From Escherichia phage FL31, in the sequence record PP400782: DNA of 64,000 nt; one strand, 5' to 3'. The notes beneath the pieces were generated by a model, which was given only the letters and a program-made list of their open reading frames with translations, was not told where the DNA came from and did no database searches. Positions 11,505 through 44,666 of this stretch are shown one piece after another. The stretch's first letter is position 1; every line of letters starts with the position of its first letter. The position numbers were made by a program, and so were the translations under genes.

Positions 11505-11550
11505 TCATAGGTCTATTATATCATAATATTTAGAGACCTATCTTAAAGCA
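11505..11550 (-). promoter_or_regulatory. Middle-promoter-like element (MotA-box TGCTTTA) with inverted repeat, upstream of gene 55
   Basis: Minus strand TGCTTTAAGATAGGTCTCTAAATATTATGATATAATAGACCTAT; ATAGGTCT/AGACCTAT arms. Confidence 0.35.
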
Positions 11551-11640
11551 CGAGATACTATCAAAGATACGTAACTTTCATAAAGTTGTCGACTTAAAAT
11601 TCGCCCAGCTTTTCTTCAGTTATACTGATTCGAGTTAATT

Positions 11641-11868
11641 TCATTCTAGTTCCTTTGCTGCTTCAAGAGCAGCATCCAGCGAATCAAATTGGTCAACGAA
11701 ATCAATATTCAATGCATCGTCAACCGTAGCATATAACCACCATTGTTTGAATTCATATTCTAGAATAAATCCAGGACCTTCAATCTGAGGAAGACCTAGG
11801 CTATTTGTACCAACTTCGTAACCAGCTAGACGCAGGTCATTAATCAAAGTTTCTGTTAATACGCTCAT
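11641..11868 (-). CDS. Hypothetical acidic small protein
   Basis: 75 aa ORF, co-oriented and tightly packed. Confidence 0.5.
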   Translation of the reverse strand: MSVLTETLINDLRLAGYEVGTNSLGLPQIEGPGFILEYEFKQWWLYATVDDALNIDFVDQFDSLDAALEAAKELE

Positions 11869-12197
11869 TTTACCGCCTTAACAATTTTAAGGTCAACGAA
11901 TTTTTTCTTACGTTGATTTTTCATACGACGGATAGTTTTTTCAGAGATTTCATGTTTCTGATAAGCTTTAGATTCAACACCAAATGCAGCAACGTCAAAT
12001 TCAGAAAGAATATATTGTACTAGAATTTCGCGAATAGAATTACGTCCAATTTTCTGGTCGTGTTTTTGCATGATTTCATAAAGACGGAATTCCCACGCGT
12101 CAAGAACTTGAGGAGTAACAATATTGCCGGATTCCAGAAGAGCAACAACTTTATCGAAAGCGAAAGAATTAACTACGTTTTTGATTTTAGTAGACAT
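11865..12197 (-). CDS. Hypothetical protein
   Basis: ATG at 12197 with GAGGAAA RBS (track N-terminus extends into the promoter cassette). Confidence 0.5.
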   Translation of the reverse strand: MSTKIKNVVNSFAFDKVVALLESGNIVTPQVLDAWEFRLYEIMQKHDQKIGRNSIREILVQYILSEFDVAAFGVESKAYQKHEISEKTIRRMKNQRKKKFVDLKIVKAVK

Positions 12198-12216
12198 ATT
12201 ATTTTCCTCGGTTATT

Positions 12217-12264
12217 TTATTATCCAATGAGAGCATTATACTCTGCTCTCAAGAGTTTGTAAAT
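12217..12264 (-). repeat. PeSL-like early promoter cassette; 48-nt copy A (47/48 identical to 40375-40422)
   Basis: Minus strand ATTTACA-N17-TATAAT with GAGAGCA/TGCTCTC inverted repeat flanking the -10. Confidence 0.6.
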
Positions 12265-12266
12265 CG

Positions 12267-12479
12267 TTATCCGAACTTTTTAGCGCCTTTCCAGCCTTCG
12301 TACATAACTGCGCAAGTCAATAGCACAGCATGTTGGCATTCTTTGTATTTGTAAATCCAGAACCAGCGTAAGAAGTCTTCATCCTCAACACCGTTGAGTT
12401 TCATGTTGGCAAAGAATTCGGCACGTTCTTCACGAAGCTTTTGCGATAACATAGATTCAGGATTCATTTTGTATTCCAC
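12267..12479 (-). CDS. Hypothetical small protein
   Basis: 70 aa ORF. Confidence 0.45.
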   Translation of the reverse strand: MEYKMNPESMLSQKLREERAEFFANMKLNGVEDEDFLRWFWIYKYKECQHAVLLTCAVMYEGWKGAKKFG

Positions 12480-12691
12480 ACCCCATTTTCATCGATGAAC
12501 TTAATCCAGTCATTTACAGACCATTTAGTTGTATCGCCCTTTGGATTAACATTTAAAGTATATAATCCCTGCTTAAAAAGCATTCGTTTGATATTCATAA
12601 TTTCCTCAACTGTAACGATAACATTCGTTAGCTTTACGTTTGGCTTCAGTATGAGAAGTATTATAATCATAATCTTCTTTACTGTAAACAT
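12464..12691 (-). CDS. Hypothetical small protein
   Basis: 75 aa ORF. Confidence 0.45.
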   Translation of the reverse strand: MFTVKKIMIIILLILKPNVKLTNVIVTVEEIMNIKRMLFKQGLYTLNVNPKGDTTKWSVNDWIKFIDENGVWNTK

Positions 12692-12950
12692 CTTTTTTCA
12701 ACTTACGAACTTCTTTGCGGAGTTGTCGATTCATTTCATTCTTGACTTCAGAATCAACGCCTTTCATACGTTTCCATTTATCTGAGCGGAAAATGTTTTC
12801 AACCATGTCTTTGTGGCTAACACCGTCAGGAGCTTTACGTTTACCCATGTAATAAAAATCTTTAGAAGACAAATCTTTACGACGATACATTTTACCCATA
12901 AGTACCTCAGAGATTGATTTCAATGATACGTTTGATATACTGCACATCAC
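12606..12950 (-). CDS. Hypothetical basic protein
   Basis: 114 aa ORF overlapping the previous one in another frame; start uncertain. Confidence 0.4.
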   Translation of the reverse strand: MMCSISNVSLKSISEVLMGKMYRRKDLSSKDFYYMGKRKAPDGVSHKDMVENIFRSDKWKRMKGVDSEVKNEMNRQLRKEVRKLKKDVYSKEDYDYNTSHTEAKRKANECYRYS

Positions 12951-13155
12951 TTACTGAAAGGTCTTTAAGACCAATTGATTCTAAACGTTGTGCAAATGTT
13001 AACATATGGGTGAAGTCCAATTGCGTTTTAGTCATTTGATAAGTGTGAATGCCATTAGCAATTTCAACCTTCAAATCGTTAATGGTGACGAAAATCATTC
13101 GTTCATCATTCATGTTAAGAACTAGAACAACTTTCTTTGAATCTAAACTAATCAT
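12907..13155 (-). CDS. Hypothetical small protein
   Basis: 82 aa ORF. Confidence 0.45.
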   Translation of the reverse strand: MISLDSKKVVLVLNMNDERMIFVTINDLKVEIANGIHTYQMTKTQLDFTHMLTFAQRLESIGLKDLSVSDVQYIKRIIEINL

Positions 13156-13496
13156 GGCTTAATTTCCTTCGCAATTGAACAGAAGATACCACGGTCACAA
13201 AGCATTTCACCAATTTCTGGATATTTGATTGAATGGTACCAAACATCCAGGCTTGAAACTCTGGTTATCTGTACTGCATTACCGTTGACAGAATAGTACT
13301 GGTCAACCTTAATTTCTTTATCTTCAATTGCCATTTTGTTTTCCTCTGTGGTAGATGGTGCTAATCTTAACATATCTATCGAGGATGTAAACTGTTTTAT
13401 GAAAATATTTTCAATTTGGGAGGGGCACAAGGAGATAGTGAAGTGAAGATTCCAATGGATTATATTAGAAATGAGATAAAGAAGACCAGGCGGCAC
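13152..13496 (-). CDS. Hypothetical protein
   Basis: 114 aa ORF; start uncertain. Confidence 0.4.
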   Translation of the reverse strand: MPPGLLYLISNIIHWNLHFTISLCPSQIENIFIKQFTSSIDMLRLAPSTTEENKMAIEDKEIKVDQYYSVNGNAVQITRVSSLDVWYHSIKYPEIGEMLCDRGIFCSIAKEIKP

Positions 13497-14605: not shown

Positions 14606-16419
14606 TGGTGTTTAACCCTATGCATGATTTCTTTATTTTTACCGAGATTAAATCCACGTTCGTTCGGATTTCCCAAATAACCGCATGTTCTTCTTATGGT
14701 GTTCATCTTTTTAGGATCAGTTTCTCCGCAAACTGAACAAACAAATCCATTTTCAGTAGGAGTCATCTCATGGGTACTTCCACACGTAAAACATTTATCT
14801 ACTGGCATATTAACACCAAAATAATCTAAATGTTGTGCAGCATAATCCCAGACGGCCTCAAGTCCTTTTAAGTTATTTTTCATATCAGGAAGTTCAACAT
14901 AAGAAATGTGACCACCTGTCGCAATGAAATGATATGGCGCTTCACGAGAAATCTTTTCAAACGGAGTAATATTTTCTTCTACTGAAACATGGAAACTATT
15001 AGTGTACCAGCCTTTATCAGTGACATCCTTTACACTTCCATATTTTTCTGTATCAAGTTTACAGAAGCGATAACAAAGGTTTTCAGCAGGAGTCGAATAT
15101 AAACTAAAAGCAAATCCAGTTCTTTCAGTCCACTGTTTAAGATGAGCATTCATTTTAGTTAAAATTTCTTGCCCAATATCGCGACCGACAAGAATATTCA
15201 ATTCGTGAATACCAATGTATCCCAAAGACACTGAACTTCTACCGTTTTTAAATAACTCAATTATGTCGTCATCAGGTTTAAGACGAACCCCGAATGCACC
15301 TTCTTGGTAAAGAATAGGAGCTACAGTTGCTTTAACACCCTTTAAAGAACTAATTCTGCACATCAAGGCTTCAAAACACAGGTCCATTCGCTCATCAAAC
15401 AATTCAGTAAATTTCTGTTCATTGAACTGTGTTCCAATATAAGAATCTAACGCGATACGAGGAAGATTCAGTGTTACAACACCAAGATTATTGCGTCCAT
15501 CAAGAATTTCATTGCCAGTTGAATCTTTCCATACGCTCAAGAAACTACGGCAGCCCATTGGAGAAACTGGAACTGAAGAACCGGTAATAGCTTTATTATT
15601 CTTAGCTGAAATAATATCAGGATACATCCTTTTGCTTGCGCACTCTAAAGCAAGTTGCTTAATGTCGTAATTCGGATCGTCTTTATAAAGATTAACGCCT
15701 TCTTCAACGAACATAACAAGCTTAGGGAAAATAGGAGTTATTCCATCACGACCAAGGCCTTTAATACGATTTTTCAGAATTGCTTTCTGAATCATTCGTT
15801 CAGTCCAGTCAGTTCCTGTTCCAAATGTTATAGTAACAAAAGGAGTTTGACCGTTTGAGCTAAAAAGAGTATTTACTTCATACTCATAAGCTTGAAATGC
15901 GTCATAGACATCTTTTTCTGTTTTGGATTGAGCATAATTCAACGCATCGGCGATTTGCCATTTTTCTGCATCCTCAATATGTTTTGCATAGGTGCGTTTA
16001 ACATAAGGAGAAAGTACTTTATCTACATTAGCAAAAGTCGTTCCGCCATATTGGTGAGAAGCAACCTGTGCAGTAATTTGTGCCATAATTGCAGTAGCAA
16101 CGCCAATTGATTTAGGAGTTTCAATCTGTGCATTACCAAGCTTAAATCCGTTCTCAAGCATTCCTTTTAAATCTACTAAACAGCAATTAGTAAATGGAAG
16201 AGCAGGGGAATAATCAATATCGTGGAAATGGATAATTCCGCTTTCATGTGCTTTCATAATAAAAGACGGGACCATATTTTTGGCAATGTGTTTAGACACA
16301 ATACCAGCCATAAGGTCCCGTTGAGTTGGAAAAACACGAGAATCTTTATTAGCATTCTCGTTTAAAAGGTCTTTATTAGTTTTATTAATCAGTCCTTCAA
16401 TTTCTTTTTCAATTTTCAT
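14602..16419 (-). CDS. nrdD: Anaerobic ribonucleoside-triphosphate reductase NrdD, uninterrupted
   Basis: 605 aa continuous ORF; C-terminal zinc-ribbon CFTCGSTHEM...CSVCG and glycyl radical motif RRTCGYLG. Confidence 0.95.
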   Translation of the reverse strand: MKIEKEIEGLINKTNKDLLNENANKDSRVFPTQRDLMAGIVSKHIAKNMVPSFIMKAHESGIIHFHDIDYSPALPFTNCCLVDLKGMLENGFKLGNAQIETPKSIGVATAIMAQITAQVASHQYGGTTFANVDKVLSPYVKRTYAKHIEDAEKWQIADALNYAQSKTEKDVYDAFQAYEYEVNTLFSSNGQTPFVTITFGTGTDWTERMIQKAILKNRIKGLGRDGITPIFPKLVMFVEEGVNLYKDDPNYDIKQLALECASKRMYPDIISAKNNKAITGSSVPVSPMGCRSFLSVWKDSTGNEILDGRNNLGVVTLNLPRIALDSYIGTQFNEQKFTELFDERMDLCFEALMCRISSLKGVKATVAPILYQEGAFGVRLKPDDDIIELFKNGRSSVSLGYIGIHELNILVGRDIGQEILTKMNAHLKQWTERTGFAFSLYSTPAENLCYRFCKLDTEKYGSVKDVTDKGWYTNSFHVSVEENITPFEKISREAPYHFIATGGHISYVELPDMKNNLKGLEAVWDYAAQHLDYFGVNMPVDKCFTCGSTHEMTPTENGFVCSVCGETDPKKMNTIRRTCGYLGNPNERGFNLGKNKEIMHRVKHQ

Positions 16420-16889
16420 TTTAAACTCTTTCTAAGCTGCTTCTTAAATGAAGTTATTAACTGTGTTTTAGTATCAGATTCATTATATTCAAATCCTCTT
16501 TGAAGCATCTCGGTCATCATTTCCTCTTTACCTAGTCTTGAGAACTCTTTAGTTTTGTCTGGAACAAAATTAGGATGGATATTATTATCAGAATAATCTT
16601 GTTTCAAATAAGCAAGAAGAGCTTCAAGCCATTCGAGGTAGTCGACATCACGACCTTTAAGACCAGAACGGTTGAACTTATGCTTCATTTGGCCTTCTGC
16701 TGCGTTGCACAGATTACAGAGTAATCCACGAACTCTACCGGCTTTTGGCCCGTTTAACTCGTGGTCGTGGTCAAGATGGTTACCTTGAACATCAGGGTCT
16801 AATTCACGGTGGCAAATAGGACACTTACCGTTCTGTGCATCATAAAATTTTTGTTTTTCTTCTTTATATTTTGCGCCTGATAATAACAT
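16416..16889 (-). CDS. 49: Endonuclease VII (Holliday junction resolvase) gp49
   Basis: 157 aa; MLLSGAKYKEEKQKFYDAQNGKCPICHRELD...HLDHDHELNGPKAG matches recalled T4 endo VII. Confidence 0.95.
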   Translation of the reverse strand: MLLSGAKYKEEKQKFYDAQNGKCPICHRELDPDVQGNHLDHDHELNGPKAGRVRGLLCNLCNAAEGQMKHKFNRSGLKGRDVDYLEWLEALLAYLKQDYSDNNIHPNFVPDKTKEFSRLGKEEMMTEMLQRGFEYNESDTKTQLITSFKKQLRKSLK

Positions 16890-16924
16890 GATAAACCCTT
16901 ACCTTAAATAGATAAGGGTATTTA

Positions 16925-17350
16925 TTAACTTAAACGTCTTTCTAAATATTCAATGTATTCTGCGGCTGCTTGCATCAGGTTACCTTCATAGCCGTCGTTA
17001 TTTTCTTGTCCGGCTAATTTAGCTAATGCATAAGAAATTCGTTCACCTTCGAATTCGCCAAGTTTACTACCTAGCACATCCGCAATATCAGCCGAATCAA
17101 TTTCTTCGAGTTCATCTATTGAATGTGATTCCCAGAAGCACCAAAGAGAAGTATCACGGTCATAGATGCAAAGTTTCTCACCAGTGTTCAACATCACTTC
17201 AATAATGCCATGGTCGCCATAACCATCTTCGGTCGTAGTACCAATTACCTTGATGATTGTTCCTTTCTTTAATTCAGGAAACTTGACTTGTAGTTCTTCA
17301 TCTTCTTTAACAATCTTGAACCATTTACCACGTGTGTCAGAAATATTCAT
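16925..17350 (-). CDS. Hypothetical acidic protein (position of T4 pin; identity unverified)
   Basis: ATG at 17350 with GAGGA RBS; the longer track ORF to 17488 may be an N-terminal over-extension. Confidence 0.4.
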   Translation of the reverse strand: MNISDTRGKWFKIVKEDEELQVKFPELKKGTIIKVIGTTTEDGYGDHGIIEVMLNTGEKLCIYDRDTSLWCFWESHSIDELEEIDSADIADVLGSKLGEFEGERISYALAKLAGQENNDGYEGNLMQAAAEYIEYLERRLS

Positions 17351-17650
17351 ATCAATATCCTCTATAAAAGTTGCGATGCGTGCGTTTCGCTTTGCGAAGC
17401 TGACGTTTAGTTGGTCGAACCGTAAATGGTTGTCCAGAGAAAAAATTCGGATCGGTTTTAATAAGCAAATACCAATCATGTTTGCCATTTTTTAATAAAC
17501 GGTACAATAATTTAACTTGCATAATAATCTCTTCCCATTTCCAAATCAATCATATCGTTTACTGTAGGTTCATCATAACACGTTTCTTCGTCGTTGTAAA
17601 CTGTTTCGACGTCTGGCTCGACAGTTTCCCATCGAGCCGAATACCATGGC

Positions 17651-18673: not shown

Positions 18674-18978
18674 TATAATGTTCTCTCAAATTTGTGGAAG
18701 CATTTACGGCATTTCAATTTCAAGTTATCAGTGGTCCAGTTAACCAGTTGGACTTGGATAGTTCCACATTCCGGGCATGGATGTTTTGCTGCCGATTTGG
18801 CAGCATTTTCACGTCGTTCAACCATTTTCATTATTTCGTTCCATGCCGGAGGAACGAACTCTTCTTCACCGTGGATTTTATCTCGCTGAACAAATTCAAT
18901 CTTTGAACTATCGTCAATAAACTTAACCAAGCGGTGATTAGTGTTCATATCAATATCCTCTAGAAGACGTAGGTTCAT
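18673..18978 (-). CDS. Zinc-ribbon protein
   Basis: 101 aa; CPECG...CRKC. Confidence 0.5.
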   Translation of the reverse strand: MNLRLLEDIDMNTNHRLVKFIDDSSKIEFVQRDKIHGEEEFVPPAWNEIMKMVERRENAAKSAAKHPCPECGTIQVQLVNWTTDNLKLKCRKCFHKFERTL

Positions 18979-19928
18979 TATAACACCTCAATGGCATTTC
19001 GTAAACCGTCCGCTTTCGCATTCAGAGCTTTTAATGATTTAGTTTGTTCTGCAATTTGGGCTTCGACTTCTTTCAGACGAGATTTGAGATATTCGCGTTC
19101 TTCAGCCATGATATCGACCTTTTCTGCTTTAGGTTCTTTAATAGGCTTAGGTTTATACGTATTAGGGTTCTTCAGCTTAATTCGGGTACGAGAACTGTAT
19201 AACATTGAACCGTTATCTTCGGATTCGTCGAACGTTTCAACAACATCCATAGTCTCTAACAATGTAATAAGTTTATAAGACAACGAACGAATAGTTTTGT
19301 TGTGCTTATTAATTTCTTCGGCTTTCATGGTACCGAGATTACGTGAGTAATAATAAGGAACCTGGATATCAATTGATAATGATGCGTTACCATTACCGGT
19401 TGGTTTGAATACTGCAGTAACCCAATCTTTAACATGAACTTTATTTGTACGACCATCACCGCCTGTGAATAATTTACGAGAATGTTTAAAAAGCATATTC
19501 ACTTGTTTATTGAATTCACAAGCAAATTTATCAGCGAATTTAGTTTCAGGAATGGTAGTTAACCAATCAGCCAAATGAGTCTTTTTAACATCATTAACAA
19601 TAGTGAATTCAACCAAATCGGTTTTAGATGTCACAGATTTAATAAAGTTCGGCTTCATAAAGTTTTTGATGTTATCACGAGCCACAGTAGAAGATAATAA
19701 ACGAGAACGTTTGAACCATTGAAGCAGTGTCCCTAATGAATGAGAATACGCATTCTGAGTATCTTTACAGATATGATTTTCTTGGCCTGTGTATGTACCA
19801 AAATCGCGAAGAATACCACTTACTACATCTCGGTGTGGAACATCAAATCCTAGTGCGCCAGTAGCGCGCTGAGCATGAACGTTAGCGATAAGGCCGGCAA
19901 AGTATTCAATGTAATGTGAACGTGTCAT
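18978..19928 (-). CDS. Hypothetical protein with C-terminal coiled coil
   Basis: 316 aa ORF, ATG at 19928. Confidence 0.55.
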   Translation of the reverse strand: MTRSHYIEYFAGLIANVHAQRATGALGFDVPHRDVVSGILRDFGTYTGQENHICKDTQNAYSHSLGTLLQWFKRSRLLSSTVARDNIKNFMKPNFIKSVTSKTDLVEFTIVNDVKKTHLADWLTTIPETKFADKFACEFNKQVNMLFKHSRKLFTGGDGRTNKVHVKDWVTAVFKPTGNGNASLSIDIQVPYYYSRNLGTMKAEEINKHNKTIRSLSYKLITLLETMDVVETFDESEDNGSMLYSSRTRIKLKNPNTYKPKPIKEPKAEKVDIMAEEREYLKSRLKEVEAQIAEQTKSLKALNAKADGLRNAIEVL

Positions 19929-19947
19929 AATATTTTCCTCTCGTTAA

Positions 19948-19985
19948 GATAGAAAGATTATACTCCAACCATCCTTGGTTGTACA
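19948..19985 (-). promoter_or_regulatory. PeSL-like early promoter cassette
   Basis: Minus strand TGTACA-N17-TATAAT with CAACCA/TGGTTG inverted repeat in the spacer. Confidence 0.5.
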
Positions 19986-20981
19986 TCATTCCTTAAGAAG
20001 TTTTACTACTTGAATAAGATTAGCTCGTTCTGTTTTATTTTTACCATTTAAGCCTGCTAATCGTGAGATTTCATCGTCAGTCTGTTGAATAGTTACATTA
20101 AGTTCGTTAATCAAAGCTTCAAAGTATTTGATTTGCTCAGCATGTTTTGATTCAAATTTCTGAACAGGAATAACGTCTTGGTTCAGTTCATCAATAAGGT
20201 CTTTAAGAGCATCTTCTTGGTTGATATCATATTCAACTTCTTTTATTTCTTCAACGAGCTCGTCTTTATATCTAACGTCTTTTAGTCCTGGTGCTGGTCC
20301 TGAAATCTCTTCTTTAAGAGTACAAACATATCCAATACGGTATCCAGTTCCGTCTCGCTTGATATCAACTTCGTCGATAAATCCACAATGTTTAAGCCCG
20401 GAGCCGATTATGTCAAAATATCCTTGACGTCGTCCTTCAAACGTTACACGAACTACTAAGACAGTTTTGCCACCGACCTTTTGAAGCTCACATTTATAAA
20501 AGTTTGTTGAACCTGAATAACATGGATGAGTTTTAAAGTTCATCTGACGATCTAGGCCCATTTGTAAACGTGCTGTTACGGCCATAAAACGTGTTTGGTT
20601 CTCGTTAAGATGAGCAACAATCCATTTCAAAGGCATTTTACACTGTTCACGGCCGAACAAATCAGTACGTCCTAGATTACGCAGGATGTTGTTAGAGTTA
20701 ATCATCGACAGAACGTTAAGTTTATTCAGCGCGCTGAAGATTCCATCAGCCATTGATTTTCCATAACCTTTACACGCTTTAATAAGTGCTCGCGGCAGAT
20801 TAGTATAGATTTCAGACGGCATATGAAAATCAAATTTACTAACCGGTAATTGATGAACTTGGATAGCAATTTGCTCATAATTAAGTGCTCTGCGATCATT
20901 ATGGTCTTTAAACCACACTTTAATCTGTGAAGCACATAAACCGTTAATTTCATGTTTTACCGCATCAGATGTAATGCTCAT
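19986..20981 (-). CDS. Hypothetical protein
   Basis: 331 aa ORF. Confidence 0.55.
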   Translation of the reverse strand: MSITSDAVKHEINGLCASQIKVWFKDHNDRRALNYEQIAIQVHQLPVSKFDFHMPSEIYTNLPRALIKACKGYGKSMADGIFSALNKLNVLSMINSNNILRNLGRTDLFGREQCKMPLKWIVAHLNENQTRFMAVTARLQMGLDRQMNFKTHPCYSGSTNFYKCELQKVGGKTVLVVRVTFEGRRQGYFDIIGSGLKHCGFIDEVDIKRDGTGYRIGYVCTLKEEISGPAPGLKDVRYKDELVEEIKEVEYDINQEDALKDLIDELNQDVIPVQKFESKHAEQIKYFEALINELNVTIQQTDDEISRLAGLNGKNKTERANLIQVVKLLKE

Positions 20982-21043: not shown

Positions 21044-21571
21044 TTATGCGTGAACCGTCTTTAAACGTTCTTCAAATTTCCGAAGAGTACTAATACGTTC
21101 TGCTTTCTGTTTTGTATAGTTTGCAATACGTTCTGAAGTGAGAGCGTATCGTTCGTTTACTGATTCTTTCATGAAGTCAGGGATTTCACGAGAAGCTTTA
21201 ATTTCATCAAACTTATCGAGTACTGCCTGGTCTTCAGCAATTAAATTTTCGTACATCTCGATATCTTTCTTGATGAAGTCGATATCTTCCTGGGTTACTT
21301 TGGATAAACGAGATGCTTTATCCTTTTTGTACTGCTCGTTAGTTTCACGAGACCAGAATAATGTACGTTTTTTGTTAGTGTTTTTGTAGACTTCCACAAT
21401 TCCAACTGAATCGATGATAACAATCCAATTCCAGCGAGATTTGAAAATCTGACCTCCGTCCACGGTAATCTCGTTACCATAAGCAACGTCATTAAAGAAC
21501 TTGCTTTGTGCTTCAGATTTAAATTTACCGTCGTTATAATTTACCAGGTTGAAAATATCTTTAGCGTTCAT
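21044..21571 (-). CDS. Hypothetical protein
   Basis: 175 aa ORF with GGAGG RBS. Confidence 0.55.
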   Translation of the reverse strand: MNAKDIFNLVNYNDGKFKSEAQSKFFNDVAYGNEITVDGGQIFKSRWNWIVIIDSVGIVEVYKNTNKKRTLFWSRETNEQYKKDKASRLSKVTQEDIDFIKKDIEMYENLIAEDQAVLDKFDEIKASREIPDFMKESVNERYALTSERIANYTKQKAERISTLRKFEERLKTVHA

Positions 21572-21589
21572 GTTTTACCTCCAGTAGTT

Positions 21590-21628
21590 GATAGGTCTAT
21601 AATAACATAACCATAGACCTTGTAAACA
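21590..21628 (-). promoter_or_regulatory. PeSL-like early promoter cassette
   Basis: Minus strand GTTTACA-N16/17-TATTAT; AGGTCTAT/ATAGACCT inverted repeat spans the -10. Confidence 0.6.
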
Positions 21629-22056: not shown

Positions 22057-23037
22057 TTATTTCAGTAAAGTAACTTCCGAGATTTCTTCCCAACCATCTT
22101 TATCGGTTGAAATAAAATCTGCTACATAAAGAGCCGTACGTAATGATACATTGCGAAGACGAGATACGTTAGCCTTCATCCAGGACAATGCTTTATACGT
22201 TTCAGCATCAGTCAGACCACGTTTCTGCATCATGTCAGTAGATAATATTACATCTTCAACTCGAACCATAATCTCTTCATTAGAGTGTACTCCAAGGTCC
22301 AAATACACTGAACGAGATACTAAAGCTTGAAGGTGTGGAGCAAGTTTCGAACCGCGTTCTAACTCTTTATCGATATCAACGTTTGTAATGAAAACGATAG
22401 TACCTTCAAACTCAAATTCTTTATCAATACCCTTATCCTCGAGATAAGATGACGCAGTGCTCCAACAAACTTTGCGTTTATCGCCGGTATCTAATGCTGC
22501 TTTAAGAAGGTTCAAGATGTCCATATCTGAGAATACGTCAACGTCGTCGATTAAGAGAACGCTGTCTGCATCACGGTTGAGCCAAAGTTGTTCGTAAAGG
22601 CCAATACCAGAGATTTTACCATTAATGCTTTTGTATTTGATGAAACCATTATCATTAGCATTATTAAGTGCTTTATCCAGAGAATACGTCTTACCAATAC
22701 CGGCTGCACCTGAAATAATGAGTGAACGAATTTTGCCATCGATAATGCCATTCGTCATCATGTTCATTACTTTAAAGCGTTTGTTGATACGAGTTTTCAT
22801 ATCTTCAGTGCTTTCAATAACTGCAACTGGTGACGTCTCAACTCCTTCCATTATGATGTCTGATTTGAAGACCCATACTCCACGTTCAGAACCATCGATC
22901 ATAACGAAAATTTTACCATCACCTAAGTGGGAACATTCAGGATTAAGCTTTGCCGGGAACCAGGTCTTTGTGGCAACATAAGAACCAGAGATTTCGTTAT
23001 TACGGTAGATACCTTTTTTGATTTGAACGTTGAACAT
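22057..23037 (-). CDS. P-loop NTPase (Walker A/B) of unknown function
   Basis: ATG at 23037; GAAGIGKT (Walker A), LLIDDVD (Walker B). Confidence 0.6.
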   Translation of the reverse strand: MFNVQIKKGIYRNNEISGSYVATKTWFPAKLNPECSHLGDGKIFVMIDGSERGVWVFKSDIIMEGVETSPVAVIESTEDMKTRINKRFKVMNMMTNGIIDGKIRSLIISGAAGIGKTYSLDKALNNANDNGFIKYKSINGKISGIGLYEQLWLNRDADSVLLIDDVDVFSDMDILNLLKAALDTGDKRKVCWSTASSYLEDKGIDKEFEFEGTIVFITNVDIDKELERGSKLAPHLQALVSRSVYLDLGVHSNEEIMVRVEDVILSTDMMQKRGLTDAETYKALSWMKANVSRLRNVSLRTALYVADFISTDKDGWEEISEVTLLK

Positions 23038-23067
23038 TTTATTCTCCAAATTTACTCATTTCGTTTC

Positions 23068-23106: not shown

Positions 23107-23107
23107 A

Positions 23108-23326: not shown

Positions 23327-23347
23327 TTTGTTTTCTCCTCTTGTTTT

Positions 23348-23430: not shown

Positions 23431-23432
23431 TA

Positions 23433-33284: not shown

Positions 33285-33290
33285 TTTTCC

Positions 33291-33704: not shown

Positions 33705-33709
33705 AATTT

Positions 33710-33761
33710 CCTCCAAGTAGTTGATGAATGTATAGTATCAAAGTCCTTGGAGGAAGTAAAC
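33710..33761 (-). promoter_or_regulatory. PeSL-like early promoter with 8-bp inverted repeat, upstream of denV
   Basis: Minus strand GTTTAC...TACTAT; arms CCTCCAAG/CTTGGAGG. Confidence 0.55.
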
Positions 33762-33762: not shown

Positions 33763-34044
33763 CTATTTTTCTGAAGCGCCTGAAATATATTTTTCAAGAC
33801 GCTGTTTCATCAACGAGCCGTTCTTAGCGATTTCTTCCGGTTTATCGCACATACGCAACAATGCTTCAAGCTTAACGATATCACTGGTGCGCTCAAATTT
33901 GCGAGTATCTATCTTACTAGCAAGTTCAGAAATACGTGCTAATAGACTTTCGGCTTCAACCAAAGCTGCACCTAGCTTAGTTGCAAATGTGTCAGTAGCT
34001 TCGTTAAGAATAGATTCCGATAAAAATTCACTATATGTTTTCAT
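33763..34044 (-). CDS. Internal-protein-like protein (CTS-bearing)
   Basis: ATG at 34044 gives [11 protein letters not shown]...; overlaps lysozyme stop (ATGA). Confidence 0.55.
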
Positions 34045-34529
34045 ATATACGCTTTCCAAGTTCCTGTTTTAAATGTTGAGATTACGCGTTTCGCGCGATT
34101 AGGTGTCTGACGATACCATTTAGATTGGGCTAGATTTACTGCCGCTTCGTCCCAACGTTTCTGTTGAAGCATACGAAGAGAATTAGTAAAACCGGCGACG
34201 CCTGCTACACCCATTTGGAAGACCATATTGACCAATGCACAACGACGAACCGCATCTAAAAAATCATATACCGGTTTAAGTTTAGCATTACCCAAGATTC
34301 CGCGAACGGCTTTATCAACGTCTTCATTAAATAGCTTTTCAGCCTCATCAAGGGTAATTGTACCGTTGCATTTACGACCGATCATTCTGTCAAGTTCAGC
34401 TTTAGCTACGGCTAAAGACGGGTTCTTTGTTACCAAATGGCCTATGCCAATCGTCCAAAAGCCTTCAGTGTCTTTGTATAAAGTCAGTCTAAGACCTTCG
34501 TCATTACGAAGCATTTCAAATATATTCAT
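34041..34529 (-). CDS. e: Lysozyme (endolysin) e
   Basis: ATG at 34529; [32 protein letters not shown]... matches recalled T4 lysozyme. Confidence 0.95.
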
Positions 34530-36187: not shown

Positions 36188-36493
36188 TTATTTTCCTCGA
36201 CATTCTTTAATGAAATTTTCTAGATTGGTAGATTCAATAGCTTTTTTACGAGCTTCTGCGTGTTCTTCTTCGGTCAATTTATGTTTATAATTGACCCAGA
36301 CATTATGGTCGAAACTAGTCGTGGCATATAATAACAAAGCTCCGACGAATAATAAAAACGGTGATAAGAATATACAACCAGGCACACCATCCATACTGTA
36401 AGCCTTTTGTAATACTGCAACAGAAAGAGTTGCGTAAAAAAGTGATGCAAATATTGTTAAAAGACCAATTCGGTTGGTTTCGCCTAATTTCAT
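36188..36493 (-). CDS. Small membrane protein
   Basis: 101 aa, two hydrophobic helices; GAGGAG RBS. Confidence 0.5.
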   Translation of the reverse strand: MKLGETNRIGLLTIFASLFYATLSVAVLQKAYSMDGVPGCIFLSPFLLFVGALLLYATTSFDHNVWVNYKHKLTEEEHAEARKKAIESTNLENFIKECRGK

Positions 36494-36512
36494 AATATTC
36501 TCCTCATGTTTT

Positions 36513-36552
36513 GGTAGGACTACTATAACATAGTCCTATAATTGTGTAAACA
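36513..36552 (-). promoter_or_regulatory. PeSL-like early promoter cassette
   Basis: ggtaggactactataacatagtcctata + gtaaaca; TAGGACTA/TAGTCCTA arms around the -10. Confidence 0.55.
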
Positions 36553-37548: not shown

Positions 37549-37800
37549 TTAAATTTCACGACATGCGATATTATATTCATCCCAGAGGTCATCGTGTGAA
37601 GCCTCTACTAATGGAACGATTGTACCATTTATGTCTTCATTATAAGGGCAAATTGTACAATGTGCATCTTCGAATCGGATGCCTTTGTGTTCAGATTTTT
37701 TATAACGCATATCGAATATCTTTGCAAACTTTTCACGAGTAATGGTTTTACCAACCACTTCGGTTCCGATACTTTCGTAATAAATCATTGTGGACTCCAT
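37549..37800 (-). CDS. Hypothetical small protein
   Basis: 83 aa ORF. Confidence 0.5.
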   Translation of the reverse strand: MESTMIYYESIGTEVVGKTITREKFAKIFDMRYKKSEHKGIRFEDAHCTICPYNEDINGTIVPLVEASHDDLWDEYNIACREI

Positions 37801-37807
37801 TTAATTT

Positions 37808-37846
37808 GATAGGACTACTATAACATAGCCCTATCTTGTTGTAAAC
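37808..37846 (-). promoter_or_regulatory. PeSL-like early promoter cassette
   Basis: gataggactactataacatagccctatc + gtaaac. Confidence 0.55.
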
Positions 37847-38340: not shown

Positions 38341-38646
38341 TTAGCACAACGCAGAAGACGAAACCCAAGCACCTTCAGTAATAACGTATCCATTACCTTC
38401 ACGCTTAACATCGCCGCCATTATTTTCAATTTCATCTTTCATCCACTGGGATACGATTTCACCCTTAGGATAATAAGTACGACCGCTACCATAATCACCT
38501 ACAGAAAATGATACGGCATATTGGTCTGCGATCTTTGTTGCTTCTTCTTCGATACGTTCAGCTTGATTCAGAAGTTTATAAATTGCATCTGAAGCGGATT
38601 TGGCATCATTAAACTCTGGTACTTTAATTTCAATAATCTTACTCAT
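38341..38646 (-). CDS. Small protein, WVSSSxxC family paralogue A
   Basis: 101 aa ending ...GAWVSSSALC; MSK N-terminus. Confidence 0.5.
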   Translation of the reverse strand: MSKIIEIKVPEFNDAKSASDAIYKLLNQAERIEEEATKIADQYAVSFSVGDYGSGRTYYPKGEIVSQWMKDEIENNGGDVKREGNGYVITEGAWVSSSALC

Positions 38647-38744
38647 TTTCTACATTCCTTAATAAAGTTTTCGATTGTTTCATTTTCACGTCTAGCTAGG
38701 AGTTCATTATAACTAATCATTTGAGAAGCGTAAACAGCATAATT

Positions 38745-39757: not shown

Positions 39758-40351
39758 TTATTTCAAAGAGTTAATATATTCTTGTACATCAGCAGAAGTG
39801 GTTTCGACACCGACCGGAGTGCCATTGAATGTTTCGACACGAGTCAGAGTGTCTTCGATATCAACCTTAGTCAGTGCAGCGATTTCAATTACATCATCGG
39901 CCGTAGAGATACCAAGGGCATTGGCTGCTCGAGTTTCACGAATGTATTCGAGTTTGATTGCCAGGTTCTGACGAGCATCGTCAAGTTCAACCACCTTACG
40001 AGCAATTTCAATTCGCATAGCGGCATACCCGTCAGCTTTTGTATTAAGTTGTTCGGCAGTTCGACGATACAGAAGACCAAGCTTAGCATGCATGGTAACA
40101 TCTTGTCCTTCGGCCAGGAGCTTACGAATTTCACGTTCCTTAGAAGCGGCTTGCTTGTTCTTTTCATTAACAAGTTCGCGAATACGTTTTTCTTCATTAA
40201 TAGATTTAACAGAAGCCGTTTTTAGTTCTTTGATTTGGGTAATCAACTTATCTGCAGCTGCGTTATACTGTTCTTCAACAGTCAGATTTTTAGCCATAGC
40301 AGTACCCAGTTTAGTGCGGATGAATTCAACAAGTTTCTTCAGTGTGTTCAT
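39758..40351 (-). CDS. Coiled-coil protein, possibly PspA/IM30-like
   Basis: ATG at 40351; long heptad-like K/E/A-rich helices. Confidence 0.35.
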
Positions 40352-40374
40352 ATTATTACCTTTCAATTGGTGGT

Positions 40375-40422
40375 TTATTATCCAACGAGAGCATTATACT
40401 CTGCTCTCAAGAGTTTGTAAAT
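40375..40422 (-). repeat. PeSL-like early promoter cassette; 48-nt copy B (47/48 identical to 12217-12264)
   Basis: ttattatccaacgagagcattatactctgctctcaagagtttgtaaat. Confidence 0.6.
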
Positions 40423-40649
40423 TATTTTTTAATCAAATTGACATAAAACTTGGCGTCTTCGGGGTGCATGCCTTCGCAGTATTCTTCAACCATGAACTTC
40501 TTAATAGCTTCATAAGGACCACTCAGATTAAGCTCAGTTGTCCAGAACTTGGAATCTTGGGCTGAATCGATACGAACTTCAGGGTGACGGTTGCGAATAA
40601 CTTCTTCGGTGTATTCATAATCAACGACATCAATACTAACTGTAGCCAT
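40422..40649 (-). CDS. Hypothetical small protein
   Basis: 75 aa ORF. Confidence 0.45.
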   Translation of the reverse strand: MATVSIDVVDYEYTEEVIRNRHPEVRIDSAQDSKFWTTELNLSGPYEAIKKFMVEEYCEGMHPEDAKFYVNLIKK

Positions 40650-40668
40650 TTTGTTTTCCTCTTGATTT

Positions 40669-40709
40669 GATAGGAGACTACTATAACATAAACTTACTTA
40701 GATGTAAAT
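40669..40709 (-). promoter_or_regulatory. PeSL-like early promoter cassette
   Basis: gataggagactactataacata...gtaaat. Confidence 0.45.
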
Positions 40710-40885
40710 TATTTCAACGTCACCTTTAGCTGCTTTATAACCTTCAGCCCAAGATACAACAGAGTTTTTATCTGAGGATTCAAATTCAGGCATTGGACTT
40801 TCACCAATATTCACACAGTATGTTTCTTCATTTTCATCGAACCAAATAATTAAAGTAGTCATTTTGTTTACTCCTCTGTAGTTGA

Positions 40886-40921
40886 TAAGTCTATAGTATC
40901 ACCATCCTTGGTGCTTGTACA
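40886..40921 (-). promoter_or_regulatory. PeSL-like early promoter cassette
   Basis: Minus strand TGTACA-N17-TACTAT with CACCAAGG/ATGGTG imperfect inverted repeat; precedes an unlisted ~57-codon ORF starting at 40861. Confidence 0.45.
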
Positions 40922-40930
40922 TCATTATTT

Positions 40931-41236
40931 TTAATTTTTCCAACTTAACAACTTGTAGTGTCCTTCATTCATACGTGGTTTATCCCAAGAAATACTAATA
41001 TATGATTCGCTGTCAATAGAAGTCGCCGGGTTTTTCTCTACCGTAAGACCTTCACTTTCCAGCCATTCAATAGTATTTGCGCATAAATCAGAAGAACACC
41101 TAATCGGAAACCGGCAAGATTTTTCACCTTTAGCTGCAGTGTTATACATCTTTTCTAAAATACGCTTTTGCACGTTTTTAAAAATAGTTTCAGCAGATTC
41201 TTCAGATTTTTTATTCAGTTCAGTGTAAAGACTCAT
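40931..41236 (-). CDS. Hypothetical protein
   Basis: 101 aa ORF with GAGGAG RBS. Confidence 0.5.
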   Translation of the reverse strand: MSLYTELNKKSEESAETIFKNVQKRILEKMYNTAAKGEKSCRFPIRCSSDLCANTIEWLESEGLTVEKNPATSIDSESYISISWDKPRMNEGHYKLLSWKN

Positions 41237-41255
41237 AATATTCTCCTCATGTTTT

Positions 41256-41294
41256 GATAGGTCTATAGTAACACATCTAGGGAAGAAGTAAACA
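41256..41294 (-). promoter_or_regulatory. PeSL-like early promoter cassette
   Basis: gataggtctatagtaacacatctagggaagaagtaaaca. Confidence 0.55.
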
Positions 41295-41972: not shown

Positions 41973-42021
41973 CAATGGTCCTTAGAAAGTAGGTTTATTG
42001 TTTACTATATTTATACAAAAA

Positions 42022-42046
42022 AGCCCCAACCTTTCGGAAGGGGCTA
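42022..42046 (-). terminator. Terminator-like hairpin plus U-run at the distal end of the tRNA/stable-RNA cluster
   Basis: agccccaacctttcggaaggggct preceded on plus strand by aaaaa. Confidence 0.5.
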
Positions 42047-42962: not shown

Positions 42963-43024
42963 TAAATAACTTTCTATTATGAAAGGCACTTGAGGGAGCA
43001 CCTTTGGTAATAGAGGGTAGATTA

Positions 43025-43049
43025 ATAATAACACATAATTCTTAAAGCA
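43025..43049 (-). promoter_or_regulatory. Middle-promoter-like element (MotA box + -10) upstream of the tRNA cluster
   Basis: Minus strand TGCTTTA-N12-TATTAT. Confidence 0.45.
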
Positions 43050-43058
43050 AATTACGTT

Positions 43059-43349
43059 TTACCGTACCATATTAATGTAGTTATATTCAATGCAACGTAA
43101 TTTCAAAGGGTTCTTGAAAATATCATATTCAAGAGGGCCTTTTTCTGTTTCAATAAAGAAATCAAAGTTAACTGTGTTAAATTTAACGTCTTCACAGAGT
43201 AATTTAACTTGTGAAGATGAACGGTCGATATAAACCTTTTCAACCTCAAAGATAGTCAGAATACCGTAGTCATTAACCAGTGCTTTAGCTGCACGTTGGT
43301 CGCTTTCATATCCGTTCTCAATGGACGATACTTTAGCATAAAGAATCAT
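43059..43349 (-). CDS. Hypothetical protein
   Basis: 96 aa ORF. Confidence 0.5.
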   Translation of the reverse strand: MILYAKVSSIENGYESDQRAAKALVNDYGILTIFEVEKVYIDRSSSQVKLLCEDVKFNTVNFDFFIETEKGPLEYDIFKNPLKLRCIEYNYINMVR

Positions 43350-43708
43350 GAATGTTCCACCATTTCAAAGGTATGAGCATCAACAATATGATACCAGTCA
43401 AAATTTTCTTCCGCGTTTTTATAAATTTCGCGAAGAGCTTCAACAGTTTTTCCTGTAGCAACAAGATCGTCAATACCACCAAGAGGATAACAGTAATAAC
43501 CAGCAAACAGAAGGAAATTAATAGTTTCTGTAGGTTCTGGATGCAGAACTCCGTTATCGTCTACCACTTCAAAGAAAGTGTAAGAAGGAGTACAAGTTTT
43601 AATCCAAGCCCATGCTTGAGCTGCCGAATCAAATGGTTTGCGTATCAAACGACAATCAGGGTCTTTAGAAGGATTTGCTTCAAAATCTGCATATACATGA
43701 TATTTCAT
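43346..43708 (-). CDS. Hypothetical protein
   Basis: 120 aa ORF. Confidence 0.5.
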   Translation of the reverse strand: MKYHVYADFEANPSKDPDCRLIRKPFDSAAQAWAWIKTCTPSYTFFEVVDDNGVLHPEPTETINFLLFAGYYCYPLGGIDDLVATGKTVEALREIYKNAEENFDWYHIVDAHTFEMVEHS

Positions 43709-43915
43709 TTACTCACCTTTTGCAATTTTATCCATAACAATAGCGATTAAACCGATTAGAAATGCTACTACCAATGAGATAGAATTTTCTGTTGTTGTCA
43801 GTAGTCCACAAATGAATCCTACAAACATCGAAAAACTAAAAGCCATTGAAGCAATTACTACAGCAACATTACGAATCAGTTCAGCGCGTTTCATTTTATT
43901 TCTCCATTTACTCAT
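43709..43915 (-). CDS. Small membrane protein
   Basis: One TM helix; better RBS at internal Met (ATG 43894). Confidence 0.45.
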   Translation of the reverse strand: MSKWRNKMKRAELIRNVAVVIASMAFSFSMFVGFICGLLTTTENSISLVVAFLIGLIAIVMDKIAKGE

Positions 43916-43922
43916 TTGTTTT

Positions 43923-43961
43923 GATAGGACTACTATAACATATCCCTATAGGCTTGTATAC
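43923..43961 (-). promoter_or_regulatory. PeSL-like early promoter cassette
   Basis: gataggactactataacatatccctata...gtatac. Confidence 0.5.
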
Positions 43962-43963
43962 CT

Positions 43964-44228
43964 TTATTTCAAATATATTGCGTATTTTTTATAGCCACCA
44001 GGCTCGTGTCGAAGACCTTTATCATTCGCAAAACGTTGAATGTTATTGAACTGGTTTTCATCAAGTTCGGATGTGTTAAATATAAAAAAAGTTTCGTTTG
44101 TTACCAAGCGTGATATGCGGAGTTAAGTCAATGTTATACAAATTAAGAATATCAGCAATAACCTGATTAACCGCTTTGTTAATTTTCACGCCAGACGATT
44201 CTGAGATGAATTCGTTGAAAGTTTTCAT
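43964..44228 (-). pseudogene. Internal-protein-like gene interrupted by a frameshift at a 7-nt homopolymer (or a short 50-aa CTS protein)
   Basis: ATG at 44228 gives MKTFNEFISESSGVKINKAVNQV... and stops after 50 codons just past the A7 run at 44084-44090; removing one base restores an ~87-aa reading frame ending at 43964. Confidence 0.45.
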
Positions 44229-44251
44229 TTTAGGTTCCATTTGGTTGTTTT

Positions 44252-44290
44252 GATAGGACTACTATAACATAGTCCTATCATGTTGTAAAT
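44252..44290 (-). promoter_or_regulatory. PeSL-like early promoter cassette with perfect 10-bp inverted repeat
   Basis: gataggacta-ctataaca-tagtcctatc + gtaaat; minus strand ATTTACA-N17-TATAGT. Confidence 0.6.
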
Positions 44291-44601
44291 TATTTTATGC
44301 CTTTAGAAGAAATGGTATTTTGGCGTTTGGCCCCTGTTTGTGAAAAATCGTGGTTATCGATTTGGTCAACTCTCATAACACCAAATGCGGATTTAATTTT
44401 GGCTTTTGAACCTTTTTTGATACTAATTATCATATAAGTATCATTTTTCTTATATTCGAAATTTGTTACTTCAACGCCTTGATTAGAAATTGACTTAATA
44501 ATAGCATTAGCGTATTCATCATCTAATGGACCGGTAGTGTTAATAATAAAATTTTTATCTGGTTTAGTAGCTTCAGCGATAAACTCTTGATAAGTTTTCA
44601 T
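44290..44601 (-). CDS. Internal protein I-like (CTS-bearing), adjacent to 57B
   Basis: ATG at 44601 gives MKTYQEFIAEATKPDKNF..., 103 aa; position corresponds to T4 ipI. Confidence 0.6.
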   Translation of the reverse strand: MKTYQEFIAEATKPDKNFIINTTGPLDDEYANAIIKSISNQGVEVTNFEYKKNDTYMIISIKKGSKAKIKSAFGVMRVDQIDNHDFSQTGAKRQNTISSKGIK

Positions 44602-44627
44602 TTGTTTTTCCGTTTGGTTTGTGATTT

Positions 44628-44666
44628 GATAGGATGATAGTAACACACCATCATCCTTATGTAAAC
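44628..44666 (-). promoter_or_regulatory. PeSL-like early promoter cassette
   Basis: gataggatgatagtaacacaccatcatcc + gtaaac; GGATGAT/ATCATCC arms. Confidence 0.55.

Follow-up and report, generated by a model that had tools for sequence, protein, structure and literature searches.

Early-promoter cassettes of Escherichia phage FL31: a covarying helix that may fold in read-through RNA

Why should the spacer of an early promoter be complementary to the sequence that follows it? This question is raised by a stretch of 64,000 nucleotides (nt) from Escherichia phage FL31 (record PP400782), referred to here as the window, in which an early-promoter cassette of about 60 nt recurs along the minus strand and about half of the copies contain an inverted repeat. 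A first-pass annotation, made from the sequence alone, had likened these cassettes to the promoter early stem-loops (PeSLs) of T4-type phages, and had considered a role in the DNA itself, or an origin by cassette duplication, more probable for the repeat than an mRNA hairpin. Read-through transcription was left out of account in that proposal. Four strands of evidence, namely covariation between the arms, an excess of G.U over A.C pairs, folds predicted to be structured in read-through RNAs and open in own-promoter leaders, and the existence of three different helix geometries, favor a hairpin of the sense-strand RNA. In our reading, the helix is probably a hairpin of transcripts that read through from upstream, which in two of the geometries would hide the ribosome-binding site (RBS), making the cassette a translational insulator built into an early promoter.

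The nearest relatives of the window are Mosigvirus (RB69-like) phages with 96-99% identity (vB_EcoM_G2469, p000v, SCS57 and JK36), and T4 aligns with it blockwise at only about 70-90% identity; by this similarity, the window is T4-like coliphage DNA of the RB69-like (Mosigvirus) type. Its 11.5-44.7 kb segment, transcribed on the minus strand, is the counterpart of the T4 early region and includes gene 55.x/nrdC, tk, regB, denV, ipIII, e, the tRNA genes and ipI. An exact search for GTTTAC-N16-18-TAnnnT gave 18 matches on the minus strand and three poor ones on the plus strand. The position weight matrix (PWM) built from these matches detected 22-24 minus-strand modules between 12689 and 44666, with no hit of at least 14 bits on the plus strand of the window and none in block shuffles. 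Cassettes are named by the coordinate of their 5' (higher) end on the minus strand, so that 29671 is the regB cassette and 33761 the denV cassette; the high-scoring cassettes 44290, 43961, 40922, 40709 and 23385 lay outside the seed set and are hence independent. The first version of the matrix, which included the downstream CCTATCAAAAC block, was too strict, missing cassettes 12264, 19986 and 40422, and was followed by a promoter-only rescan; these three, and degenerate copies near 11520 and 21943, were added by breakpoint inspection or repeat search. The family thus comprises about 25 minus-strand modules between 12.2 and 44.7 kb, where the first-pass annotation had counted at least 17. Twenty of them lie between 19.9 and 44.7 kb, about one per 1.2 kb, which agrees with its estimate of one per 1-2 kb. 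Independently of the matrix, an unbiased repeat finder picks out the cassettes too: they are the dominant dispersed direct repeats in this part of the window, in groups of 12 copies of 43 nt (D1), seven copies of 64 nt (D2) and eight copies of 49 nt (D3).

Each module is laid out as an A-rich UP-like stretch, a -35 element (GTTTAC or a variant), a spacer of 17-18 nt with a TG, and a -10 element (TAnnnT), followed by a predicted start 7 nt further on, a leader of about 21 nt with the Shine-Dalgarno sequence (SD), and the ATG. The consensus over 25 modules is A.aaAa..GTTTAC ... T.TGTTAt.AT. Since the distance from the -35 element to the ATG is 56-68 nt in 19 of the 25, the module fills the entire intergenic gap. 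The motif AG(A/T)CCTATCAAAAC that had been described after the -10 element is genuine, but is found in only about 9-11 copies. A scan with a generic sigma-70 consensus does not discriminate (76 sites, 66.9 expected). The same PWM applied to T4 gives 38 hits on the minus strand and none on the plus strand, including the promoters of regB (62797), denV (65413) and ipI (73939). The T4 GenBank and RefSeq records contain no promoter features; their sole usable note, 'early promoter Pe133295', coincides with the PWM hit at 133331, which puts the start 36 nt beyond the -35 element's first base, i.e., at the seventh nt after the -10. Start sites in FL31 were assigned by analogy with T4 and RB69. For the latter, 57 early promoters have been predicted (Nolan 2006, PMC1524935), in which GTTTAC occupies positions -36 to -31 and C is preferred from -3 to -1, and this preference agrees with the agtCCTAtc of the FL31 cassettes. 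Judged by these elements, the modules are sigma-70-dependent T4-type early promoters, a class already predicted for RB69. They also fit the published description of PeSLs, as the first-pass annotation had recognized, and are in that sense of a known kind.

The repeat itself occurs far more often than expected. A perfect stem of at least 8 bp between the spacer and the -10/downstream segment is present in eight of 24 cassettes, where shuffling predicts 0.35 (maximum 3 in 300 shuffles). If G.U pairs are admitted, the helix reaches significance on its own (p<=0.05) in 11 of 25 cassettes, and at least seven Watson-Crick pairs are present in 12; the combined p by Fisher's method is 3.7e-6. In a wider set of 93 distinct cassettes taken from 24 sources, 52 show at least seven Watson-Crick pairs, where shuffles give 14.7 (maximum 25). 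The helix is therefore well above chance and is carried by about half of the cassettes. The three inverted repeats quoted in the first-pass annotation (44252-44289, 29626-29661 and 33710-33752) are present essentially where it had placed them; its statement that most copies carry the repeat is too strong (11-12 of 25). Cassettes lacking the helix would count as plain promoters or 'half' PeSLs.

Three geometries can be distinguished. In class A (44666, 44290, 40422, 37846, 36551, 25778, 21627 and 12264), the 5' arm lies in the spacer and the 3' arm extends from the end of the -10 element to about +3. In class B, an anti-SD arm directly follows the -35 element and the 3' arm contains the SD; this applies to regB 29671 (14 bp), denV 33761 (10 bp) and 26227 (8 bp), and weakly to 13392, which bears out the earlier remark that several downstream arms include the SD. 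Class C is formed by the denV promoter of relatives, in which the -10/discriminator region, ending at about -1, is the 5' arm, and the SD plus AUG is the 3' arm. In all three, the 5' arm is upstream of the predicted start, ending at -19 to -25 or at about -1, as the first-pass annotation had anticipated. The same bracket helices, with unrelated arm sequences, are present in T4 and more distant relatives, for example TGATGAGGTA/TACCTCATCA at T4 ipI, a 14-bp stem at T4 position 57990, and GATGGGAC/GTCCCATC in L020.

Is it the pairing, and not the sequence, that is maintained? Covariation of the arms was assessed by an alignment-free permutation test that compares own with cross-lineage pairings, as MAFFT alignment lost the register of the regB 3' arms. 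For the regB promoter, in 16 lineages, the most divergent with about 56% RegB identity, a lineage's own arms form helices of 9.8 bp on average, versus 6.7 bp for cross-lineage pairs, and none of 20,000 permutations reaches the observed sum. The anti-SD:SD core is lengthened by lineage-specific complements, such as CTAGTTG/CAACTAG, TTGAC/GTTAA, TTTAT/ATAAA, TGTAAG/CTTACA and TTTTAG/CTAAAA. The denV promoter gives the same result in 20 lineages (9.05 versus 6.64; 0/20,000 permutations). Where the cassette helices depart internally from Watson-Crick pairing, the sense strand has G.U 32 times and A.C seven times; without the pairs that touch fixed promoter motifs, the counts are 17:7, more G.U than the null fraction of 0.41-0.48 would give (p about 0.01-0.02).

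These data bear on the idea that the dyad over the -10 element is an operator, i.e., a site at which a dimeric phage or host protein shuts off the early promoters. The shut-off mechanism of T4 early promoters is 'not completely understood' (PMC3014915), and six or seven cassettes of the window have nearly identical arms (GATAGGACTA/TAGTCCTATC). However, the arms vary freely among cassettes and phages while the pairing persists, which speaks for a structure rather than sequence-specific recognition, and the arm positions vary too, with loops of 6 to about 25 nt. An operator is in our view very improbable.

Which RNA would contain the structure? The transcript from a cassette's own promoter would start past the 5' arm and would have an open leader, and RNA reading through from an upstream promoter would contain both arms and fold. 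The predicted folds differ accordingly between the two. Seven of eight read-through RNAs that were folded have z-scores between -2.85 and -3.98; those of regB and denV reach -23.8 and -20.9 kcal/mol, with the SD (the GGAG of regB) fully paired in both. The own-promoter leaders of regB and denV have z-scores of +1.7 and +1.9, i.e., they are less structured than almost all shuffles. Over the 20 intergenic cassettes, the mean z is +0.57 for own leaders (p = 5e-5) and -1.56 for read-through RNAs (p = 0.0015), and the SD has a probability of being unpaired of 0.68 in own-promoter RNA and of 0.46 in read-through RNA (p = 3e-5). The fall is steep for regB (0.76 to 0.03) and denV (0.64 to 0.13), and SD accessibility also drops in cassettes 21627, 19986, 13392, 26227 and 40709.

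It is known that T4 early transcripts run on into downstream genes, so that immediate-early RNA is extended into delayed-early RNA (PMC2988021). In FL31, the upstream stop codon is mostly only 1-6 nt before the -35 element, with no terminator in between. Taken together, this means that RNA from an upstream promoter should hold both arms; we infer such RNA at each site, and all functional consequences with it. In classes B and C, the fold would bury the RBS, and the gene would be translated only or mainly from transcripts of its own early promoter. In the case of regB, the buried GGAG would double as the cut site through which RegB regulates its own mRNA; RNA structure is known to shield GGAG from RegB (PMC3014915). 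For class A we can offer, with low confidence, that the hairpins might mark cistron boundaries in read-through RNA as attenuators or as protectors of RNA ends, for example after leader cleavage.

Insulation could also be transcriptional instead of translational. According to the function published for PeSLs, the cassette is a composite promoter-terminator whose stem-loop stops or attenuates incoming transcription. In favor of this, the stem-loop of an RB49 PeSL reduced lacZ read-through about as much as rrnB T1 (PMC2839356), and the class A hairpins, which leave the SD untouched, have a stability of -11 to -17 kcal/mol. A block of translation could, moreover, provoke Rho polarity, and Rho sites are known between immediate-early and delayed-early genes (PMC2988021). 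However, a U-run is missing after every cassette helix: what comes next is AAAAC in class A, and leader and ATG in class B. A terminator scan gave 17 terminator-like sites, none of which coincides with a cassette helix. A separate canonical terminator-type hairpin (AGCCCC...GGGGC, then TTTTT; 26234-26267) lies just upstream of cassette 26227, and termination would not require what the covariation shows, a 3' arm anchored on the SD. Canonical intrinsic termination by the cassette helices is thus not supported by what can be read from their flanks, Rho-dependent polarity may follow a translational block, and the composite promoter-terminator as a whole seems to us rather unlikely. A second copy of the terminator hairpin, 85% identical to that at 26234-26267, is found 15.8 kb away at 42013-42046, at replacement boundary 42011.

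The denV loci of four phage contigs of about 350 kb (L090, L093, L097 and L098) present a different arrangement. About 60 nt upstream of denV, they have a -35 element, TTGAC, within a G+C-rich hairpin that is followed by a T-run and then TATAAT (e.g., GGGTTGACttcgGTCAGCCCtttttgcTATAAT). By this layout, the jumbo-phage element is a true overlapping terminator-promoter, unlike the cassettes of the window.

Do the cassettes also shape the gene content of the region? In the PeSL model, cassettes that serve as recombination substrates should have gene-content breakpoints falling within them, and we compared the cassettes with the 33 unique indel or replacement boundaries that distinguish the 11-47 kb segment from its counterparts in the four close relatives. 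Nine of the 33 fall in the 58-nt cassette core, where 4% are expected (p = 4e-6), and twelve in the extended cassette. Boundaries of insertions or replacements lie at the -35 edge (36551, 38735, 43961, 41299 and 29675) or inside the cassette (19957-19983 and 12257-12267). This enrichment, a check that the first-pass annotation had suggested, supports the idea of PeSL-based shuffling; under a gene-junction null, 12 of 28 junction boundaries are at cassette-bearing junctions, versus 26% (p = 0.044). In a 2022 eLife paper on amplification in T4, early promoters were not implicated in the recombination junctions.

The same boundaries are what might be expected of a DNA-level element, in which the repeat extrudes as a cruciform or single-strand hairpin and is a recombination hot spot, or else is a by-product of cassette duplication. 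Several boundaries lie exactly at the -35 edge, the stem-loop has been speculated to be the target of a recombination protein (Arbiol 2010, PMC2839356), and a single-stranded hairpin of the sense-strand DNA would tolerate G.T as well. However, breakpoints are found equally at the helix-less cassettes 38735, 41293, 23105 and 43961, and also at junctions with no cassette, from which it follows that dispersed homology suffices and DNA structure is not needed. The cassettes, near-repeats of 40-65 nt, may simply act as substrates of homologous recombination. A cruciform would require both strands to fold, which does not agree with the sense-strand G.U bias, and stems of this size (7-14 bp, the loops reaching about 25 nt) are poor candidates for extrusion. 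Inverted repeats do not arise from direct duplication, and the 3' arm follows the SD or the AUG in three geometries, which would be meaningless in DNA. We consider the DNA-level reading unlikely.

Several observations weigh against the RNA hairpin that we propose. A significant helix is missing from about half of the cassettes, so that the module does not require one, and the class A hairpins leave SD accessibility unchanged. Family-wide, SD occlusion exceeds the control with shuffled upstream segments only modestly (26/66 cassettes versus 16.8 +/- 3.6; maximum 27 in 60 sets); the pyrimidine-rich composition of the spacer alone is sufficient for pairing with purine-rich SDs. Part of the raw G.U excess (G.U:A.C = 34:10) comes from the fixed ...TGG / CTAT... 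promoter motifs, and the breakpoint enrichment over the gene-junction null is weak. The start sites are predicted by analogy. Finally, the 5' arm could be opened in part by ribosomes that terminate at the stop codon upstream, in which case the helix might couple translation rather than block it.

Part of this would fit a neutral by-product, in which the pyrimidine-rich spacer and purine-rich SD provide the composition, and templated mutation perfects quasi-palindromes into repeats that have no function. Templated quasi-palindrome mutagenesis is a classical phenomenon of T4, the helix is absent from half of the cassettes, and about 17 of 66 SDs are already occluded with shuffled upstream segments. 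What argues against it is that own-lineage helices exceed cross-lineage ones at two genes, with 0/20,000 permutations each, and that repeats of at least 8 bp are present in 33% of the cassettes versus 1.7% of random genomic sites of the same geometry. Nor does a mutational process predict the G.U bias or the constant placement of the 5' arm upstream of the start, and own-promoter leaders that are significantly less structured than shuffles point to selection on RNA folding. A neutral origin is thus quite improbable.

The individual cassettes, all on the minus strand, are as follows. Among those of class A, 44666 (44599-44666) has GTTTAC, an 18-nt spacer, TACTAT and the helix AGGATGATGG/CTATCATCCT, and drives an internal-protein-like gene (MKTYQEF...); its neighbor 44290 (44226-44290) has ATTTAC, an 18-nt spacer, TATAGT and the helix TGATAGGACTA/TAGTCCTATCA (11 bp, -16.7 kcal/mol). 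Cassette 40422 (40349-40422; ATTTAC, 18-nt spacer, TATAAT) has the helix GAGAGCA/TGCTCTC, cassette 37846 (37786-37846) the helix GATAGGGCTA/TAGTCCTATC with one G.U pair, and cassette 36551 (36491-36551) the helix TAGGACTA/TAGTCCTA, with a 262-nt insertion of the relatives starting exactly at the -35 element. The helix of 25778 (25718-25778), TTGGTAGGATTA/TAGTCCTACCAA, comprises 11 Watson-Crick pairs and one G.U (-17.4 kcal/mol). At 21627 (21569-21627; AGGTCTAT/ATAGACCT), the SD is also occluded in the read-through fold (accessibility 0.57 to 0.08). Cassette 12264 (12195-12264; ATTTAC, 18-nt spacer, TATAAT; helix TGAGAGCA/TGCTCTCA) is the site of a 295-nt insertion of the relatives within the -35 element. 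Although 28 kb apart, the segments 12216-12264 and 40374-40422 are 98% identical over 49 nt, and in T4 a cassette of this type precedes motB (at 7215), its arms, GGGACCA/TGGTCCC, being compensating ones.

In class B, the anti-SD arm TTCCTCCAAG of the denV cassette (33702-33761) directly follows the -35 element and pairs with the SD-containing CTTGGAGGAA. In the regB cassette (29612-29671), which has a replacement boundary at 29675, TTCTCCTCTAGTTG pairs with CAACTAGAGGAGAA, and in cassette 26227 (26169-26227), preceded by the intrinsic-terminator hairpin, TTCTCCTC pairs with GAGGAGAA. The pairing at 13392 (13332-13392; GTTTAC, 17-nt spacer, TAAGAT) is a short anti-SD match, TCCTC/GAGGA, and SD accessibility goes from 0.82 to 0.34.

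The remaining cassettes have an imperfect helix or no significant one, or are listed by their promoter elements. Cassette 43961 (43892-43961; GTATAC, 18-nt spacer, TATAGT, then agtCCTATCAAAAC) has an imperfect helix and an indel boundary at 43949-43961. Neither 41293 (41234-41293; GTTTAC, 17-nt spacer, TACTAT, then agaCCTATCAAAAC; replacement boundary 41299) nor 40922 (40860-40922; -35 ATGTAC, -10 TACTAT) has a significant helix; the relatives have an insertion 24 nt upstream of the latter. At 40709 (40647-40709; ATTTAC, 18-nt spacer, TATAGT), the SD is less accessible in read-through RNA (0.51) than in own-promoter RNA (0.93). Cassette 38735 (38644-38735; GTTTAC, 18-nt spacer, TATAAT) has a longer leader and no helix, and a 250-nt insertion of the relatives starts exactly at its -35 element. 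The helix is also missing from 33020 (32958-33020; GTTTAC, 18-nt spacer, TATAAT), which drives an internal-protein-like gene, and from 23385 (23324-23385; -35 GTGTAC, -10 TATTAT, then agaCCTATCAAAAC), which is part of a segment (23096-23435) replaced in relatives. Imperfect helices, AATTGTGA/TCATAATT and CTCCtAG/CTtGGAG, occur in 31695 (31582-31695; GTTTAC, 18-nt spacer, TAGTAT), with replacement boundaries at 31623 and 31647. In 23105 (23035-23105; GTTTAC, 17-nt spacer, TATTAT), replacement boundary 23096 is just past the -35 element, and in 19986 (19926-19986; -35 ATGTAC, -10 TATAAT), JK36 has a 993-nt insertion inside the spacer (19957-19983).

Some modules are weaker or lie elsewhere than in a gap between genes. 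The module at 43017-43052 (ATTTGC, 16-nt spacer, TATTAT), upstream of tRNA-Met and with an indel boundary at 43052-43061, is only weakly promoter-like. Two promoter modules have no helix: that at 18947-19006, in the 3' end of the upstream gene, and that at 17520-17601, inside coding sequence and conserved at the homologous T4 site 47452. A weak candidate at 12654-12689, also inside coding sequence, has its T4 homolog at 41261. The half cassette at 21914-21943 matches cassette 40922 in its UP-like region and ATGTAC -35 element (92% over 25 nt) and has a poor -10, TATGGA. The degenerate cassette at 11483-11541 has TATAAT and an 8-bp bracket helix, ATAGGTCT/AGACCTAT, with no -35 element at the proper spacing. 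Its reading as a MotA-type middle promoter was rejected, as TGCTTTA is present but is 23 nt from the -10 element, not 11-13. All four close relatives have about 184 nt extra at 11562, just upstream of it. An Rfam search of the window matched no family to the cassettes and found only the two tRNAs.

A repeat of about 51 nt, present in six copies (31969-32019, 32589-32639, 32929-32979, 33253-33303, 34013-34063 and 44570-44620), spans the SD, the ATG and the first ten or so codons (MKTYQEFI...) of small genes, and appears to be the N-terminal leader conserved among internal-protein (IP) genes. The indel boundaries 44579 and 44223 lie inside or beside such IP-type leaders. Gene order in 31650-33760 differs from that of T4, with denV upstream of the ipIII/ipII-like genes (T4: e-ipIII-ipII-denV), and the rearranged block has cassettes 33761, 33020 and 31695 as its bounds. 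The segment 42711-42962 contains just two tRNA genes (Arg-tct and Met-cat), where JK36 has ten and T4 eight, and several indel boundaries lie at the tRNA edges (42711, 42787, 42891 and 42917). Upstream of the start of gene 49 (endonuclease VII), and directly adjacent to it, is a hairpin (CCCTTAtctatttaaggTAAGGG, 16855-16925) that probably corresponds to the leader structure known from gene 49 of T4; a replacement boundary relative to JK36 lies at 16925. The nrdD gene is uninterrupted at 15881-15882, where T4 is about 1 kb longer because of the I-TevII group I intron. In the annotations of the relatives, start codons chosen by longest open reading frame fall within promoter elements at 18978, where the ATG sits in TATAATG, and at 21917, where it sits in the spacer. 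An ATG with a good SD lies downstream of the former, at about 18949, as an alternative start. Both calls may be erroneous, and the cassette list can serve as a promoter and leader map for Mosigvirus annotation and for correcting start codons called inside promoters.

If the read-through hairpin is real, transcripts from outside would be translationally silent, with their GGAG shielded from RegB, while the own transcript would be open. What an early gene yields would then hinge on the promoter that its RNA came from, and not just on its being transcribed; this bears on how immediate-early and delayed-early expression is interpreted, and on regB autoregulation, as the GGAG target of RegB would be hidden on read-through RNA. 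Genes flanked by PeSLs, and orphan genes, could be shuffled between contexts or phages with their expression program kept. The conserved spacer and leader of T4 early promoters would serve for more than the binding of RNA polymerase. Two classic T4 themes, modular shuffling by PeSLs and translational control by a promoter within a hairpin, would thus be joined. The wider extension, that early genes of the Tevenvirinae are in general self-insulating modules with the promoter inside or just 5' of the upstream arm and the RBS closed on outside transcripts, is a tentative one, which we hold to be conceivable but on balance doubtful.

How does this compare with known systems? The cassettes resemble the early promoters of T4 and RB69 in their GTTTAC (-36 to -31), in a -10 element extended by TG, in an UP element rich in A, in the preference for C from -3 to -1, and in 'additional regions of consensus'; in the passages cited, those promoters are described by linear consensus motifs, and complementarity between spacer and downstream segment is not discussed there (Liebig & Ruger 1989; Nolan et al. 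2006, PMC1524935; Hinton 2010, PMC2988021). PeSL stem-loops are located most often between the -35 and -10 elements or overlapping the -10 (Arbiol et al. 2010, PMC2839356), and PeSLs have been extended to T4/PST and KVP40/nt-1 (Comeau et al. 2014, PMC4122927). The FL31 cassettes share with them the strong sigma-70-like early promoter with AT-rich upstream sequence, the stem-loop within or overlapping the promoter, the SD and ATG at the 3' end, and the concentration in hyperplastic early regions near indels between close relatives. They differ in that PeSLs have been described for RB49/phi1, T4/PST and KVP40/nt-1, and not for the RB69 group, that the published T4/PST stem-loops are drawn just upstream of the promoter, and that the published function is that of a terminator or attenuator, the 2010 paper mentioning neither translation nor the ribosome (PMC2839356). 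The FL31 helices lack U-tracts, their 3' arm is often the SD, and their arms covary with the SD.

The design of a promoter within a hairpin is established for T4 e, soc, 49 and I-TevI (PMC3014915). There, as in FL31, the promoter lies inside the region encoding the 5' strand of a helix that sequesters the SD or AUG, and upstream-initiated transcripts are translationally silent while those of the proximal promoter are open, which for FL31 is a prediction. The T4 internal promoter, however, is a late one (gp55, TATAAATA) and delays expression, whereas the FL31 cassettes are early sigma-70 promoters, for which the effect predicted by analogy with the T4 hairpins is that translation is confined to their own early transcripts. 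The FL31 cassettes would accordingly be analogous to the e/soc/49/I-TevI set rather than members of it. In the fold-back inhibition of IS10 and IS50, the upstream segment of an external RNA pairs with the RBS of the transposase, and RNA from the own promoter lacks this segment. Self-insulating early modules, if they exist as proposed, would be the equivalent of this in phages. The likeness is that a mobile unit shields its gene from outside transcription; the difference is that these are bacterial insertion sequences with a single gene and no dispersed family of promoter cassettes. The assignment of the cassettes as early promoters and PeSLs is already known in kind, and what is new, and modestly so, is a plausible variant of the promoter-in-hairpin theme.

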